NCBI GenBank assembly: GCA_964373955.1
Contig: CAYJXA010000001.1
Coordinates: forward strand, 108,301-172,300
DNA length: 64,000 nt
Direction: 5' to 3'
Origin: an uncultured Methanosarcinales archaeon
GTDB taxonomy: Archaea > Nanobdellota > Nanobdellia > Woesearchaeales > GW2011-AR9
Below are positions 39,840 to 54,632 of this stretch, piece after piece. The notes under the pieces are model-generated. The model did no database searches, was not told the origin of the DNA, and worked only from the letters and a program-made list of their open reading frames with translations. The position numbers and the translations under genes were made by a program. The first letter of the stretch is position 1; every line of letters begins with the position of its first letter.

Positions 39840-40208
39840 ATGGAAGAGAAGATACACTTGTTTGCAGCTCAACTCTATTTCGAGGTGGCGCAGCAAAAAG
39901 ATAAGGAGTATGAAAAAGAAATAGAGCCGAATAGAAGAATTGCTTTAAGGATAGTAGCTGCTCAAAATTATTTCTATGCCATAATAAATGCCATTGAAGC
40001 TATCCTCGCTACTAAAGAAGAGCATTCATTTAACCATGAAAATAGAATGAGTAAAATCCACGAGCATCGAACTCTCTTTTCTGAAGAAGTGATAGGTTTG
40101 TACACGCAAATTGAACGAGACCAGCGAAATAAAGTGACTTATCGCGGCCAAAATGGGGTTATGTATGAAAATATTAAGAAATTAGCCCGGGTATTAAATC
40201 ATGAATAA
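39840..40208 (+). CDS. HEPN-domain protein (partner of the downstream NTase)
   Basis: All-alpha 122 aa with an R-x4-H motif (NRMSKIH). Its 3' end overlaps the next gene by 8 nt. Confidence 0.5.
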   Translation: MEEKIHLFAAQLYFEVAQQKDKEYEKEIEPNRRIALRIVAAQNYFYAIINAIEAILATKEEHSFNHENRMSKIHEHRTLFSEEVIGLYTQIERDQRNKVTYRGQNGVMYENIKKLARVLNHE

Positions 40209-40818
40209 ATTTGAAATAACTCTCCGAAAACTGCAAGAACTCTTTCCGGAAATACGCCAGGTATTAATGGTGTTTTTATTTGGTTCCGTTGCAAGAGGTG
40301 ATTTTTCCCTCCGTCATTCTGATTTGGATTTGTTTGTTATTCTTAAGAAAAAAGTGATTACTGAAGAGATTAAAGAGAAGCTAGATAAGATCATTTTACC
40401 GGTGGGAGACAGGGAAGGAGTTAAGATACAGACCGAATATCAAGGGCTCACTATTCTCCATGAAGATCGGACTTTAATCCGAAAGATGATCGAGGAGGGG
40501 AAAATAATTTATTCCACGGGGGTATTTACGTTCGATTACCAACAGGTAGGTTTGCAACAATATGCAATTTATAGTTTCTCTCTTAAAAATGCCCTTAACC
40601 CCACCATGTTCTCAAAAGTATTGCATGGACGAAAGAGCTGGTATCGAAAAGGAAAAGAGAGAGTAATCAGAGAGTATATTGGGATTATAGATGGGAAAGA
40701 GGTTATAGAATTAGGGAGGGGAGCAATTATGGTCCTTAAATCTAGAGAGAAAGACCTGAAACATATCTTTGAGCAATTTAAGACAGAATACAAACTAATA
40801 AAGATAGTGTATGCTTAA
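40201..40818 (+). CDS. Minimal nucleotidyltransferase (MNT) domain protein
   Basis: LFGSVARGDFSLRHSDLDLFVIL NTase motif. Confidence 0.7.
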   Translation: MNKFEITLRKLQELFPEIRQVLMVFLFGSVARGDFSLRHSDLDLFVILKKKVITEEIKEKLDKIILPVGDREGVKIQTEYQGLTILHEDRTLIRKMIEEGKIIYSTGVFTFDYQQVGLQQYAIYSFSLKNALNPTMFSKVLHGRKSWYRKGKERVIREYIGIIDGKEVIELGRGAIMVLKSREKDLKHIFEQFKTEYKLIKIVYA

Positions 40819-43190: not shown

Positions 43191-43739
43191 ATGGTAGACA
43201 GTTTCCCTCCCGGAGCTGAAGGAGAAGCAGAAAGATTAGAGCGAGAAGCATGCTGTGGTGATATTTCCAAACTTTTAGAACCTTACAAACTTCCCTGCTG
43301 CATACTTTTTTTAGGCATGAGTCTGGCGGGTGAAGTACTACGATCCTGCGAAGAGAGGAAAAGATCTCAAACAACATTTTCTTTACAGCAAGTGCTGGTT
43401 GACCAGATTGAATGGTACCAGCAAGAAATATCCCCTGAACTTCATCAAAGACTGGGCGTAGAGCGTATCTGCCGATATGAACCCAGCTGTTCAGCCTACG
43501 CAAAAGAAGCTATCATCAAAAATGGTGCTCTTCTGGGATCTTTACAGGCGGGAAGAAGATTACTTCGCTGTAACCCTTTAAGTCTAGGGGGGTATGACCC
43601 AATAACTTTAAACGAAACCAGGGAACACTTTAAAATGATGATAAAAGTTTACCAAAATGAAGGATGGTACGCAGCCCTACATTACGATTATGAACGAACT
43701 AAAACCTCTTGGTCAGAAAAATTATCGTTGAGATCATGA
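43191..43739 (+). CDS. YidD-like (membrane protein insertion efficiency factor / PF01809) domain protein with N-terminal extension
   Basis: CRYEPSCSAYAKEAIIKNGALLGSLQAGRRLLRCNPLSLGGYDP matches the YidD signature C.F.PSCS.YA..A....G...G......R..RC.P...GG.DP. Confidence 0.6.
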   Translation: MVDSFPPGAEGEAERLEREACCGDISKLLEPYKLPCCILFLGMSLAGEVLRSCEERKRSQTTFSLQQVLVDQIEWYQQEISPELHQRLGVERICRYEPSCSAYAKEAIIKNGALLGSLQAGRRLLRCNPLSLGGYDPITLNETREHFKMMIKVYQNEGWYAALHYDYERTKTSWSEKLSLRS

Positions 43740-43777
43740 CTTTCTCTGATAAAATTTATAAAAAAACGCTTTGATTC

Positions 43778-43951
43778 ATGAATAAGATGGAAAAGTGCAG
43801 TATTTGTGGCAATAAGATAGCAGAGTTATTCCTGGAGAAACCAAAAGGAACGATCATTAAAAAATTAGGCTCTAGCAAGCAATACCCTATCTGTTTCGAA
43901 TGCCAGAAGAAGTTTAGGAGTAAAGAAGAGTTGTTACAACAAATAAAATAG
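43778..43951 (+). CDS. Small zinc-ribbon protein (CxxC...CxxC), about 57 aa
   Basis: MNKMEKCSICGNK...YPICFECQKK. Below the ORF-track length cutoff. The overlapping minus ORF 43756..44157 is rejected. Confidence 0.4.
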   Translation: MNKMEKCSICGNKIAELFLEKPKGTIIKKLGSSKQYPICFECQKKFRSKEELLQQIK

Positions 43952-43953
43952 TA

Positions 43954-43983
43954 TCCCTGTGGCTTAGTAGCTCTTCGCGGCCA
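43954..43983 (+). repeat. Partial duplicate of the 5' end (acceptor 5' strand plus D-arm) of the downstream tRNA-Thr
   Basis: The 18-mer ccctgtggcttagtagct is identical at 43955-43972 and 44063-44080. Similarity extends with an indel (agctcttcgcgg versus agctatagcgg). No matching 3' half for this copy was found. Confidence 0.45.
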
Positions 43984-44060
43984 ATTTCGATTTGGCGTTC
44001 GAGGTGCCATCTTCGCAACGGGGCTGCTCGATAGCACAAGAGCATAAATTCGTGCCAAAT

Positions 44061-44172
44061 GCCCCTGTGGCTTAGTAGCTATAGCGGCTGCCTCGTAGAA
44101 TCGAATGGTGATAAGCGTTACTCTTCGATTTTTGACAGCAGCAGATCGCGAGTGCAATTCTCGCCAGGGGCT
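44061..44172 (+). tRNA. tRNA-Thr(CGU) with one canonical 39-nt intron at 37/38
   Basis: gcccctg-tg-gctt-agtagcta-tagc-g-gctgc-ctcgta|intron|a-gcagc-agatc-gcgag-tgcaatt-ctcgc-caggggc-t. Perfect 7-bp acceptor. The intron carries an aatcgaa/ttcgatt stem. T-tract follows. Atypical G at T-loop position 55 and no GG in the D-loop. Confidence 0.5.
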
Positions 44173-44252
44173 TTTTATTCTTCACTCATACAGATTATAA
44201 TCAAACCAACCATCATAATTTATATACTAGAGCTTCTTCTGCTCAAAGCATA

Positions 44253-44537
44253 ATGAGCATCGTCTTCAAAACGTACAATCGAAAACATCAACTTCATTTG
44301 TACCAAGAAACCTGGGTGTTTACAACCAAAGTCCAGTTGGATGAAGTTCTGGGGCTCTTTCCAAAAAAGGAAATTAGCAAAGCAGAGATTAAACCAGTCA
44401 ATGAAACTATTGAAGTGACGTTTAACGGCCTGATCATGGACTGCCGGGATTTAGCTGATTTAAAGAAAAAGTTTGGTTTGTTGGCAGACTTGAAAGAGCG
44501 ATACCAAAAACAAATGGTGCAAAAACCAAAGAAATAA
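44253..44537 (+). CDS. Hypothetical protein
   Basis: 94-aa ORF. No motif. Confidence 0.4.
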   Translation: MSIVFKTYNRKHQLHLYQETWVFTTKVQLDEVLGLFPKKEISKAEIKPVNETIEVTFNGLIMDCRDLADLKKKFGLLADLKERYQKQMVQKPKK

Positions 44538-44568: not shown

Positions 44569-45642
44569 GTGAGCGTAAACCTTTATAAAATAGACTTCAT
44601 CCTAGATAAAAGTATGGACGTAGAAACAGCCCACTTAATCCAACAAGCGCAGGAGACCTATGTGCAACATTTTCCTTTAGAGACCTGCTTTGAACGAGCT
44701 GTTTTCTTTAGCTGGGGATGTACTATTGGAGATTGCACCTTCTGCTATATGAGCACTCAGCCTGCAGATAAAAAACCCACGGAAACGAAGCGAAGCGTTG
44801 AGTCCATTCTCGCAGAATTTATTCTTGCTAAGCATCTGGGCTGGGACATCGGTTTTTTTACCGGAGGCATAGGAGTGTTCTCGCCAACAGAATTAGAATT
44901 CTTACTTCAAGCCATCACTACCATCACCAATGATAAGATCTGGCTTTCCGTCGGACCGCTCTCCAAACCACTTTTAGAACGATATCTTCCTTATATCAAA
45001 GGAGTAGTAGGATCTACAGAAACAATTAATCCTCATTTACATGAAGTGGTCTGCCCTTCTAAACCGCTGGCTCCGTACGAGCGCATGTTTGAAGCAGCAG
45101 AGGAACTTAACTTGCAAAAAGCAATGACGTTTATTGTGGGAATGGGTGAAACTAAAGCGGACTTACAATTATTGAAAGAATTCATTCGCAAATATAAAAT
45201 TGACAAGATCCATCTCTATGGATTGGTGCCACAAAAAGGCACCATATTTGAACATACGCCCCCGCCCACTGCGGAAGAGCAGGCCTGGTGGATCGCTCAA
45301 CTCAGAATTGCTTTTCCTACTTTAGATATCCAATGCGGAGTATGGGAAGATCGTATCGAACGAGTTTCCTTGCTCTTACATGCAGGAGCAAACTCCATCT
45401 CAAAATTTCGGGCAATAGCATTGTTTGGAACTTCCTCCGCCAAAGAACTAGAACTCCAAGCCCGGCAGGCAGGAAGAATATTTAAAGGGACAGTCACAAA
45501 AATACCGGAGCCAGATTGGGAAGGGGAAGTGCATACACTCCCATTTGAACCGGAACTGAAAAAGAGAATACTGATCAAACTTCAAGAATATCTGGACACC
45601 ATGAAGAAGAACAGCAAGATTATGGTAACACAAAGCATATAA
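44569..45642 (+). CDS. Radical-SAM-like protein (BioB/ThiH-like region) with non-canonical C-x4-C-x2-C cluster motif
   Basis: VFFSWGCTIGDCTFCYMS resembles the BioB-type GGC..DC.YC site but has one extra residue. A possible alternative start is the ATG at 44617. Confidence 0.5.
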   Translation: MSVNLYKIDFILDKSMDVETAHLIQQAQETYVQHFPLETCFERAVFFSWGCTIGDCTFCYMSTQPADKKPTETKRSVESILAEFILAKHLGWDIGFFTGGIGVFSPTELEFLLQAITTITNDKIWLSVGPLSKPLLERYLPYIKGVVGSTETINPHLHEVVCPSKPLAPYERMFEAAEELNLQKAMTFIVGMGETKADLQLLKEFIRKYKIDKIHLYGLVPQKGTIFEHTPPPTAEEQAWWIAQLRIAFPTLDIQCGVWEDRIERVSLLLHAGANSISKFRAIALFGTSSAKELELQARQAGRIFKGTVTKIPEPDWEGEVHTLPFEPELKKRILIKLQEYLDTMKKNSKIMVTQSI

Positions 45643-51968: not shown

Positions 51969-54632
51969 CTACACTACCGTAACCAGGCGATACGTAGAGG
52001 ACCTGCTTTCGCCGTTGCCGACGGACACTTTGATCAGATACTCACCGGGAACAGCATCGTACGGGATCTCTACCGTCAGCAATTTATTGACACTCCTTCC
52101 ATCGCGAAGGTCAAACTCAGCACTGGCTCGATACACGTTCAAATCGTACATCATCACGCTGATTTGCAAATCTTCTAAATCTTCCTCGCCTTCATTTCTG
52201 ACGCCGACTCGCAGCAAAAGCATATCGCCGGCAACTACTTCTTCCGTTGCCAAATGTACGCTGGTAAAGCGGATATCATTGGTAGGAGCAGCATAGCGGC
52301 AATTGCCCACGTCTAAGGTGGCGCGGGAATTGTAATTCAAAGCGGTCGGATCAGTGCAGCCTAAGACATCGACGGGAAGCTCGTCCTCATCGCAAACGCC
52401 ATTACTGTTTTCATCAGGACAGGGAGGTACTTCCTCATCATCGCAAATACCATTCCCATTAGCATCAATGCATTCATCAACGGTATCACAAATGCCGTCT
52501 TCGTCGACATCTGCAGGACAGGGAGGGACATCCTCTTCGCAAGCATCTCCTATACCATCCCCGTCGCTATCTGCTTGAGTGGGGTTAAAGACTGCTGGAC
52601 AATTATCTTCATCATCGTTAATTCCATCCCCGTCGCTATCTTCTTCAGAGTCATAAACACAACTTGCTGGATCAGAGATCCCAGCGAAAGGATTGTAATT
52701 GAGAGCCGCTGGATCAAGGCAACCTGATTCTTCTTCATCACAGGTTCCATTACTATTTCCATCAGCGCATACTTCTTCCTCATCGCAAACGCCATTACTA
52801 TTTTCATCAGGACAAATTTCATCTTCATCGCAGATGCCGTTGCCGTTGGTATCGGGGCAGGGAGGCGCTTCTTCGTCATCGCAGATCCCATTGCCATTTA
52901 CATCCGGACAAGGAGGGACTTCTTCATCATCGCAAATGCCATTTCCATTTATGTCGGGACATGGTTCTTCGTATTCACAGCTACCATCGTCAGTAGTTGC
53001 TTCGGGATTATAATTAGTAGCGGTAGCATCCGTACACCCAGGAACTTCTACGACGGGAAGATCTTCAATAGTTATGGAAATGCTTTCAAAGTCTTCTAAT
53101 TCACCATCAGAAACAATAAAAGTAACTTCATATACTCCGGATTGTGCTAAGCCGGGAGTCCAGGTGAAAGTAGCAGTACCGTCTCCATTATCAATAAAAG
53201 TTGCTCCGACATCCACGAGATCAAGATCTTCAGCCTCGAAAGTTAACGCATCTCCATCAGGGTCGATAGCAGTAAGTAGTAATTCAAGTGTTTCACCTTC
53301 CGTAACCGTTTGATCGCCAATAGGCGCTAAAACGGGTGGCCTATTTACATTGCCTACACTAATAGTAATTGTTTCCGTATCAATTAAAGAGCCATCGGTA
53401 ATAGTGAACGTAACTTCATAATTTCCCGTTTGTTCAAAGGTGGGCGTCCAGCTGAAAGTTTGGGTTACTGCATCAAACGTAGCTCCTTCCGGAAGTCCGC
53501 TTGCAGAGAACGCAACCGCATCTCCATCCGGATCACTGCCGCTTACCGTGAACGTTAACAATTCCATCTCCGCTACACTTTGATCGCCAATGAGATCAAG
53601 CACCGGAGCGCGATTGGTATTGGCAACAGTAATAGTAAATTCTTGTTCTACACTATCAAAGCCATCGGAAACTCGAATGGTAACATCATGATCACCAGCA
53701 TCATTATAGTCTGGAGTCCAACGGAGACGCTGCAATTTGTCAATCGTCATCCCTGTAGGATATGTGGTCAAAGTATATGTTAAATCGTCTTCCGGGTCAG
53801 CATCGCTGGCGGTAACAGTATAACTATAAAGAGAACCTTCGGCTGCTTCCGTAACCGGCGTGGAGGTAATCGCAGGAATTCTGTTGACATCATGAACTCT
53901 AATAGTAATATATTCATCGGGAGAATAATTCTCGCCATCGAATGCGCGTAGTACTAAAGTAAGGGTTCTTTCTTCACTCGGATGTTGAACTTCATCATAC
54001 TCAGGAGTGTAGGTGATGCTGGTGATTACGCCGCTCTCTCGAACTGCACTCACATCAGCATCAACCAAAGGCAGATTCCAGCATGAAGAGCCAAAACCTA
54101 CGTTGATACAATATCGTTGAAGTAAAGCTACCTCTAAATCATCCCCATCTTGATCAACAGTAACAATTCGGGGAATCCATAACGTTTCTTCCTCATTAAC
54201 ATCATAATTGTCGGGCCACACTGAAACTGCAGGAACGGTATCGACGTTTAAGTTAAGATATTGAAAATCTTCTCCTTCTGTATTCATCACATGAACCCTA
54301 ACAATATAATCTCCCGCAAGTCCCTCGGTGTTAACTGTAAATTCTTGAATATAGGGATCATCAATATCCGCAGCAACAGTAGAATCAGCAAAAACAGTTC
54401 TTACAATAGTGCTTCCACGCAAAACATCAATCCATAGGCCGATATTTTCGGTACTGGTGACGTACACTAACAATTCAGCATTTTCACCTTGATCGACAGA
54501 TAAAGAATCATCGCCATTAGCGGTCCATTCACTGGTCAAATCAATAGTGTGATCTGCATATGCCAATGAGATTATTGTACTAGCTATTAAAATGAATGCA
54601 ATTATTCCCCCTAGGATTTTACTTGTTTTCAT
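51969..54632 (-). CDS. Surface protein with tandem thrombospondin type-3-like Ca-binding repeats and Ig-like/cadherin-like domains
   Basis: Signal peptide. At least 10 repeats of CPDxNGNGICDDEExPP and DSDGDGINDDEDNCPAVFNPTQADSDGDGIGDACE (TSP3 consensus DxDxDGxxDxxDNCP..N..Q.D.D.DG.GD.CD). Confidence 0.7.
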   Translation of the reverse strand: MKTSKILGGIIAFILIASTIISLAYADHTIDLTSEWTANGDDSLSVDQGENAELLVYVTSTENIGLWIDVLRGSTIVRTVFADSTVAADIDDPYIQEFTVNTEGLAGDYIVRVHVMNTEGEDFQYLNLNVDTVPAVSVWPDNYDVNEEETLWIPRIVTVDQDGDDLEVALLQRYCINVGFGSSCWNLPLVDADVSAVRESGVITSITYTPEYDEVQHPSEERTLTLVLRAFDGENYSPDEYITIRVHDVNRIPAITSTPVTEAAEGSLYSYTVTASDADPEDDLTYTLTTYPTGMTIDKLQRLRWTPDYNDAGDHDVTIRVSDGFDSVEQEFTITVANTNRAPVLDLIGDQSVAEMELLTFTVSGSDPDGDAVAFSASGLPEGATFDAVTQTFSWTPTFEQTGNYEVTFTITDGSLIDTETITISVGNVNRPPVLAPIGDQTVTEGETLELLLTAIDPDGDALTFEAEDLDLVDVGATFIDNGDGTATFTWTPGLAQSGVYEVTFIVSDGELEDFESISITIEDLPVVEVPGCTDATATNYNPEATTDDGSCEYEEPCPDINGNGICDDEEVPPCPDVNGNGICDDEEAPPCPDTNGNGICDEDEICPDENSNGVCDEEEVCADGNSNGTCDEEESGCLDPAALNYNPFAGISDPASCVYDSEEDSDGDGINDDEDNCPAVFNPTQADSDGDGIGDACEEDVPPCPADVDEDGICDTVDECIDANGNGICDDEEVPPCPDENSNGVCDEDELPVDVLGCTDPTALNYNSRATLDVGNCRYAAPTNDIRFTSVHLATEEVVAGDMLLLRVGVRNEGEEDLEDLQISVMMYDLNVYRASAEFDLRDGRSVNKLLTVEIPYDAVPGEYLIKVSVGNGESRSSTYRLVTVV
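52380..52960 (-). repeat. Tandem DNA repeats encoding the TSP3-like motif array
   Basis: Recurrent units ttcctcatcgcaaa(c/t)gccatt(a/c)c...tcaggacagggagg within the gene. Confidence 0.5.

Follow-up and report, generated by a model that had tools for sequence, protein, structure and literature searches.

The 64,000-nt stretch of archaeal DNA analysed here (the window; positions 108,301 to 172,300 of contig CAYJXA010000001.1), which its sequence places in a Woesearchaeota-type (DPANN) archaeon, carries a tRNA-Thr(CGU) gene whose own 5' end is repeated 108 nt upstream, with a non-coding module of ~85 nt (43973..44056, + strand) lying between the two copies. Modules of the same family occur in at least seven lineages. 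We favour, with moderate confidence, the reading that a short module came in by insertion or recombination and has the duplicated target on either side of it, the right copy restoring the tRNA and the left copy being a dead fragment. The origin of non-canonical introns, fragments and splits in archaeal tRNA genes is an open question, and here a footprint of disruption is left by a gene-less ~85-nt module found repeatedly, in different Woesearchaeota, at one position of the tRNA. Loci used for comparison are referred to by their labels (L001 and so on).

The repeat consists of the 18-mer CCCTGTGGCTTAGTAGCT (tRNA positions 3-20), which is present in exactly two copies, at 43955-43972 and 44063-44080, as an earlier note on this DNA had described. 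No third match was found in the 64 kb with up to 3 mismatches allowed, two matches arose in 0/100 shuffles of the window, and the 18-mer is the sole close, non-coding direct repeat of at least 14 nt in it. The right copy is part of a complete tRNA-Thr(CGU) gene (44061..44172, + strand), with exon 1 at 44061-44097, a 39-nt intron at 44098-44136 (position 37/38), exon 2 at 44137-44171, a discriminator T at 44172 and a T-run at its 3' end (44172-44176). The note had proposed this gene and its intron, and both Rfam and ARAGORN agree: the tRNA model RF00005 scores 50.4 bits on 44061-44172 against a gathering threshold of 29 when the speed filters are relaxed, and ARAGORN, once introns are permitted, calls a tRNA-Thr(cgt) interrupted after position 37 by an intron of 39 nt. 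That intron is why neither search finds the gene in its ordinary setting (default ARAGORN, filtered Rfam); the intron stem AATCGAA/TTCGATT can be read directly in the sequence, as the note had stated. The gene folds with z=-4.5 and its exons recur, identical or near-identical, at more than 20 loci. It is a genuine gene and no pseudogene.

The left copy (43953..43972, + strand) is a dead 5' fragment of tRNA-Thr comprising positions 1-20. Its positions 3-20 match the gene's exactly, while positions 1-2 are AT where the gene has GC, and it begins 2 nt past the end (43951) of a small Zn-ribbon open reading frame (ORF). It is not a complete tRNA in its own right: apart from the downstream gene, RF00005 gives no match at E<=10 in 43700-44400, and ARAGORN at a lowered threshold finds no tRNA in 43953-44024. 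The earlier note had seen no recognisable anticodon arm or T-arm here, which holds in so far as the tRNA model finds nothing but overlooks hairpins that resemble both, namely GCCAA-TTTCGAT-TTGGC at 43980-43996 and, overlapping it, TGGCG-TTCGAGG-TGCCA from 43993. The fold of the upstream region is nonetheless unremarkable (z=-1.4). Across loci, the left copy differs from the working copy at between ~0 and 37% of positions (0/18 in the window, 1/18 in L036, 2/19 in L024 and 7/19 in L033, by manual counts). The downstream copy is always perfectly paired with its own 3' acceptor strand (e.g., GCCCTTA/TAAGGGC in L033 and L036), whereas the upstream fragment in L033 and L034 does not follow the changes in that strand.

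Comparison with relatives indicates where the tRNA originally stood. The Zn-ribbon gene (43787..43951, + strand; in the ORF list, 54 aa from ATG 43787, with a CxxC...CxxC pattern and stop codon TAG at 43949-43951) is preceded by an A/T-rich, TATA-like box at 43751-43763. Its protein has 75 homologues of 53-54 aa and belongs to no Pfam family. The gene adjoins tRNA-Thr(CGU) at L001, L002, L015, L016, L018, L032-L036, L041 and L045, and by this synteny it is conserved among Woesearchaeota on the left of tRNA-Thr(CGU), nearly always as the immediate neighbour. The closest relative found, L001, has identical tRNA exons and a neighbouring radical-SAM protein with 86% identity to that of the window; its intact tRNA starts 4 nt past the Zn-ribbon stop with no insert, and the corresponding distance in L002, L015, L018 and L032 is 1-7 nt. 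The alignment of flanks to related genomes that the note had proposed thus points to an insertion between the repeats, with these loci as empty sites, and since the intact tRNA of the relatives lies next to the Zn-ribbon stop, it is the upstream copy in the window that holds the ancestral tRNA position. The right target copy (44057..44080, + strand) consists of AAATGC followed by CCCTGTGGCTTAGTAGCT, that is, the working tRNA 5' end with ~4 nt of native-looking upstream sequence. This AAATGC resembles AAATGTGC before the L001 tRNA, and the duplicated target therefore probably spans about -4 to +20 of the tRNA. The distance from the Zn-ribbon stop to tRNA-Thr(CGU) is often just 1-7 nt, without an intervening terminator, a spacing which suggests an mRNA-tRNA co-transcript.

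The module itself recurs. A profile search with nhmmer matches it at 43977-44039 (E=4e-9), and L010, L024, L033, L034/L035 and L036-L039 each have a module with a tRNA-Thr 5' fragment on one side and a complete tRNA-Thr(CGU) on the other, L010 and L024 with the atypical tRNA type described below and the others with the canonical one. In five of the at least six other module lineages the insertion point is the same, at about D-loop position 15-20 of tRNA-Thr(CGU); among ~23 distinct tRNA-Thr(CGU) loci inspected, 6 have a module. To assess homology, the tRNA-like part was cut away and the remaining module sequences were compared in pairs by shuffle tests. The window module matches those of L010 (p=0.005) and L024 (p=0.009), the L024 module matches those of L034 (p=0.001) and L036 (p=0.002), and L033, L034 and L036 match one another at p<0.001. 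By these tests the modules form one family, to whose L033, L034 and L036 members the window is joined via L024. Rfam holds no family for the window, L033 or L034 module.

A constant part of the module is hairpin H1 (43980..43996, + strand; GCCAA, loop TTTCGAT, TTGGC), the anticodon-arm-like hairpin mentioned above. A perfect 5-8-bp hairpin stands in the same relative place in 7/7 modules, with five stem sequences and a loop of either T(Y)ACGC or TTTCGAT; this was judged by a hairpin test on each sequence, MAFFT being unable to put the subfamilies in register. The 8-mer TTCGATTT within H1 (43986-43993) recurs as the 3' side of the intron stem (44124-44131) and could pair with AATCGAA of the intron, probably a chance match. 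A second hairpin, H2 (44000..44015, + strand; CGAGG, TGCCAT, CTTCG), holds the family motif GGTGC and is weakly conserved in an alignment made by eye, which supports it less well than H1 is supported. The module tail (44027..44037, + strand), CTCGATAGCAC in the window and identical in L010, reads CTCGACAGCAC in L024, ends in CGTTCAGCAC in L033, L034 and L036 and reads CTCAACAGCAC in L019; its end, AGCAC, is common to all module copies. The tail shows partial complementarity with the left fragment's D-arm region, and in L036 the two would form a perfect 10-bp helix (-21 kcal/mol). Comparison of own with cross duplex energies gave a mixed result. Most copies have an A/T-rich box, which in the window is CATAAATT (44043..44050, + strand) at the right end of the module; the window's box is a weak one and L010 has none; the counterpart in L033, L034 and L036, ATT(T)AAAAATAA, stands ~30 nt before the tRNA start and is archaeal-TATA-like, and the box may act as a promoter.

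The frame past the Zn-ribbon TAG is open through the module for 31 codons in the window (43949-44046). L033 (1662-1745) and L034 (1665-1750) have an in-frame ORF of 26-27 codons, 'MPL.LS.KCHA...VQ(Q)H*', and in L036 the same post-stop frame is open without a start codon. We rejected a micro-ORF or read-through product, as there is no consistent start, no protein conservation across groups and a frame shift between groups, and regard the open frame as a by-product of DNA conservation.

What bears most on the nature of the module is a copy away from any tRNA fragment. A module-only profile search found it in L019 (E=2.8e-5), inside the 3' end of a protein gene, an ORF of 203 aa on the opposite strand; a direct repeat of ~30 nt (~25/30 identical), made up of that end together with its stop codon, brackets the copy. 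The copy is placed 70-165 nt upstream of tRNA-Thr(UGU), inverted relative to that gene. In the tRNA and L019 settings alike, the duplication extends beyond the gene end, so that one intact copy of the gene survives, and it is mainly for this reason that we read the module as a bracketed insertion and not as something with a set function in the tRNA transcript.

Under this reading, a module of ~85 bp would have entered the 5' part of tRNA-Thr(CGU) and duplicated ~20-26 nt of its target. The right copy together with the rest of the gene would make up a complete, working tRNA, because the duplicated stretch begins upstream of tRNA position 1. The insertion, ending as it does in a second tRNA 5' end, would have displaced the working gene 108 nt downstream, leaving the left copy stranded beside the Zn-ribbon stop, where the change from GC to AT at positions 1-2 would mark its decay. 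The module may have arrived in a transposition-like manner with a long target duplication or by single crossover of a small circle that carried the target; a circle of this kind would yield the same picture and could also account for the imported-looking fragments of L033 and L034. We take the module to be selfish or neutral. Because no T-run terminator separates the Zn-ribbon stop from the tRNA (read directly, the sequence has no run of at least 4 T there), fragment and module are probably transcribed, either as a 3' untranslated region (UTR) or as a long 5' leader that RNase P would remove. The earlier note, which as a whole finds partial support, had offered a relic of recombination or integration at the tRNA as one possibility, and in substance this is supported, given the ancestral site, the recurrent module and the duplicated target.

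A bolder version of this reading, which we offer tentatively and consider unlikely as formulated, is that the module represents a previously undescribed class of tiny mobile elements (~65-90 bp) of DPANN archaea, with a target core in the tRNA-Thr D-arm (TGGCT...), duplications of 20-30 bp and an outward promoter. The conserved tail, antisense to tRNA positions ~7-17, might then serve homing, and the module might supply raw material for the non-canonical D-loop introns of sister lineages.

Several observations count against a bracketed insertion. The 64-kb window contains no transposase, integrase, terminal inverted repeats or second module copy: a profile search found a single copy, and inspection showed no terminal inverted repeats where the module begins and stops, whether in the window or in L019; the inverted repeats that a repeat search did list lie elsewhere than at the ends. 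For a transposon, 18-30 bp would be an unusually long stretch of target to duplicate, and the sole non-tRNA target known sits ~100 nt from tRNA-Thr(UGU). The modules of L033, L034 and L036 are 76-81% identical despite third-codon divergence in the adjacent gene, and H1 pairing is kept across its different stems; such conservation and pairing are as compatible with a functional RNA under selection as with recent spread. That the module accompanies two deeply separated tRNA-Thr types may also be a matter of old vertical inheritance with many losses. Finally, the left fragments of L033 and L034 resemble the tRNA of other lineages and not the adjacent one, which target duplication explains only if the working copy changed later.

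These points lead to the best surviving alternative, a possible though distinctly less probable one, in which fragment and module are a conserved functional, tRNA-derived structured RNA, whether a 3' UTR of the Zn-ribbon mRNA, a 5' leader or a promoter-bearing element of tRNA-Thr(CGU), inherited vertically and lost repeatedly when its two direct repeats recombined. The 76-81% identity among the L033, L034 and L036 modules argues for it, when set against third-codon identities in the adjacent gene of only 28-31% (near saturation) in two pairs and 61% in L033/L036. So do the perfect H1 in 7/7 copies with five different stems and the conserved loop T(Y)ACGC, the AGCAC tail of all copies, the 10-bp helix of L036, the well-placed TATA-like box after the module in L033, L034 and L036, and the association of the element with canonical and atypical tRNA-Thr types alike. 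However, most surveyed loci, including the closest relative of the window, do without a module, and the L019 copy is inverted with respect to its tRNA and bracketed by a duplicated protein-gene end. Fragment and tail do not pair consistently better with their own partner than across copies, the fold of the window copy is unremarkable, no Rfam family matches, and the A/T-rich box is weak in the window and missing from L010. Recent horizontal spread of a selfish element would account for the supporting facts too, and it accommodates the patchy distribution and the L019 copy better than a leader RNA does.

It is also conceivable, if improbable, that we are looking at an attachment-site scar: a large integrative element, a virus or a plasmid with its integrase, would have recombined with the 5' part of the gene and given the tRNA a new 5' end and promoter, and its interior would later have been deleted to leave the fragment as attL, the two element ends as the module and the working 5' end as attR. 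The layout matches the pNOB8-type case at the Caldiarchaeum gene for tRNA-Thr(GGU), the fragment of L033 and L034 differs from the adjacent tRNA as though one copy had been imported, and the promoter-like box at the right end of the module is what an element that replaces a 5' end requires. Yet none of the ~25 loci surveyed has an integrase or any other gene between fragment and tRNA, and the same remnant of ~65-90 nt in 7 lineages would demand either one ancient deletion or identical independent ones, while the L019 copy targets a protein gene. Nor do viral contigs provide a source: one module motif had no match in them, the 17 matches of a second all lie inside GC-rich phage genes and are due to chance, and the one match of CCCTGTGGCTTAGTAGCT in viral sequences is unrelated.

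Very little speaks for a tandem duplication that has since decayed, whether it took in all of the tRNA gene or the junction between the Zn-ribbon 3' end and the tRNA 5' end, with a period of 108 nt and the 18-mer preserved unchanged by gene conversion. The period is close to the length of the gene, and by eye 43953-44024 can be laid over the spliced tRNA, with hairpins at the anticodon- and T-arm positions and CAACGGGGCT against CCAGGGGCT. The earlier note, too, had seen similarity continuing past the 18-mer, where GCGGC follows in both copies, but in shuffle tests the module does not match its own tRNA beyond the 18-mer (p=0.16 and 0.78). It does not significantly match the Zn-ribbon coding sequence either, though MAFFT and the eye aligned the tail with the end of that sequence. 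The modules of other lineages have no acceptor-like 3' strand and the L019 copy has no tRNA part; on the shuffle statistics, this duplication is rejected.

Least credible of all is a fragment in use, be it as the 5' half of a split tRNA, which the earlier note had also suggested, as the 5' piece of a tri-split one or as an alternative first exon that the splicing endonuclease would join to the downstream gene, given the intact gene for the same isoacceptor 90 nt downstream, a fragment whose A1 and U2 cannot pair with C72 and G71 and which shows no co-variation with the acceptor 3' strand in relatives, and a 64-kb window with no 3' half. In that search CAGGGAT occurred 8 times against 7 expected, with no site following a T-arm, and a search for T-arm plus acceptor returned, besides the real gene, two unrelated sites and a hairpin within the module that is due to chance; what follows the left fragment is the hairpin module and an A/T-rich stretch. 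The idea draws on the relatedness of Woesearchaeota to Nanoarchaeum, an owner of split tRNAs, on genuine D-loop introns (20/21) at the fragment's end point in L018, L033 and L041, and on the sequences of the window, L010 and L024, which allow a 3-nt CGA bulge (44029-44031 in the window) to be placed beside a D-stem-like helix. By manual inspection, though, no consistent bulge-helix-bulge (BHB) motif runs across the copies at the fragment/module junctions. Taken as a D-loop intron, 43973-44080 has no two-sided BHB, canonical or relaxed, in the window, nor have its counterparts in L010, L024, L033, L034 and L036: a one-sided CGA bulge is all that three of the six copies show and L036 has a continuous helix, unlike the true 17-nt D-loop intron at 20/21 in L018, whose BHB is near-canonical. 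A relationship between the module and the D-loop introns of L018, L033 and L041 was considered separately and rejected as not significant (p>=0.06).

Among known systems, the closest precedent for this locus is the tRNA-Thr(GGU) of Caldiarchaeum subterraneum, where a 5' fragment comprising positions 1-27 precedes the reconstituted gene by 1.8 kb, a recombinase-bearing mobile element occupies the space between the repeats and the gene has an intron at 24/25 (Sugahara et al. 2012, PMC3293823). It is the one population-level model of such disruption. Both cases combine a direct-repeat tRNA-Thr 5' fragment (1-27 there, ~1-20 here) with a complete gene downstream and foreign DNA between them, both show presence or absence between close relatives, and both are linked to gain and loss of non-canonical D-arm introns. 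They differ in that 1.8 kb with a recombinase there is replaced here by ~85 nt without a gene and with a conserved hairpin, and in that several lineages share the window module's position in the tRNA gene, with one further copy at the end of a protein gene. Integration into tRNA genes of the SSV or pNOB8 type likewise brackets the inserted DNA with a direct repeat of part of the tRNA and reconstitutes the gene. Here, however, there is no integrase or element body, only 90 nt separate the repeats, as in the other six lineages, the repeat is a 5' end of 18-26 nt (the 3' end is more usual), and one target is not a tRNA.

The module also shares features with elements resembling miniature inverted-repeat transposable elements and with casposons, one of which has a 15-bp target duplication beside the 3' end of tRNA-Pro (PMC5137440): a short non-coding insert with internal hairpins, a target duplication, a strong preference for sites close to DNA that encodes a tRNA hairpin, and empty sites in relatives. 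Unlike these, it has no casposase or Cas1 and no known autonomous partner, and its duplication of 18-30 nt is longer than that of known transposons. A casposon proper was rejected, as the insert has no gene and hence no Cas1-type casposase, there are no terminal inverted repeats, and casposon target-site duplications measure 14-15 bp. As for the split and tri-split tRNAs of Nanoarchaeum equitans and Caldivirga maquilingensis, the likeness is a free 5' piece ending in the D-arm/anticodon region; here, though, a partner piece and a complementary GC-rich leader are lacking, and the fragment has an intact gene beside it and mutations in its acceptor bases.

If the module is mobile, it offers a testable mechanism for the disruption of tRNA genes in DPANN archaea, and if the class of tiny mobile elements is real, it would give a live view of archaeal tRNA genes becoming interrupted. 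Should it prove to be a conserved leader RNA instead, it would be a new tRNA-derived non-coding element. Annotators, for their part, should not equate tRNA-like 5' fragments beside intron-containing tRNAs in such genomes with split halves.

The tRNA-Thr(CGU) of the window is unusual in its elbow. The earlier note had pointed to a G at position 55, which is indeed there (T-loop TGCAATT), and to the lack of G18-G19; the D-loop, AGTAGCTA, is atypical, but it retains one G, and 'one G kept' describes it better. This D-loop together with the T-loop TGCAAYT (G55) was found at more than 20 loci in genome and metagenome scans and is present in all three Thr isoacceptors, CGU, UGU (L007, L019) and GGU (L022, L027), which within the atypical clade have their first ~26 nt in common. 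The repeated 18-mer is not a genome-wide motif, a possibility that the note had considered; it is the common 5' end of the three tRNA-Thr isoacceptors of one Woesearchaeota clade. The canonical T-loop TTCAAAT always occurs with a GG-containing D-loop (L002, L032-L036, L041, L045). When the window, L001 and L006-L028 are compared with L002 and L032-L045, the atypical elbow is clade-wide and co-varying, and D-loop and T-loop change jointly, most simply read as G18->A with U55->G and with G19-C56 retained.

Inserts also occur on the other side of tRNA-Thr genes, in a mirror image of the 5' arrangement: an insert is followed by a second T-stem 3' strand and acceptor 3' strand (a direct repeat of 10-15 nt) and then by a T-run terminator. 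Such 3' inserts, 45-63 nt long and with a hairpin, lie past the tRNA end in L011/L021 (+58), L016 (+47), L027 (+46) and L032 (+52) and fall into two families, TTRAGCAAAGCGAAAG... and GTGAAACA...; in L016 the tRNA is flanked on either side by small inserts. The introns of tRNA-Thr(CGU) are found at 20/21, 30/31, 35/36, 37/38 and 60/61 across loci. L036 compared with L038/L039, and L041 with L043, have identical Zn-ribbon proteins and upstream modules, and these contigs differ in the presence of a 69-nt T-loop intron (60/61) or in which anticodon-loop introns they have. These sequence comparisons indicate very fast intron turnover in tRNA-Thr(CGU).

As to the surroundings, an ABCE1 gene lies 1.5 kb upstream of the tRNA-Thr locus in the ORF list, and downstream of the tRNA is a radical-SAM protein gene (44569-45642) whose best matches are in metagenome-assembled genomes of Woesearchaeota and Nanoarchaeota. 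Several metagenome-assembled genomes titled 'uncultured Methanosarcinales archaeon' (L011, L015, L018 and L019) bear a Woesearchaeota-type Zn-ribbon/tRNA-Thr locus, and their Methanosarcinales labels look doubtful. Elsewhere in the window, 39840-40818 holds two overlapping small ORFs, the second of which (205 aa) has a nucleotidyltransferase-like GSxxRGDxxxxSDxD motif, and the pair looks like a toxin-antitoxin system of the HEPN/MNT type. At 52380-52970 there are at least 7 units of tandem 45/51-nt repeats, 60-76% identical, which look like a minus-strand coding repeat rich in Asp, Glu and Cys codons.

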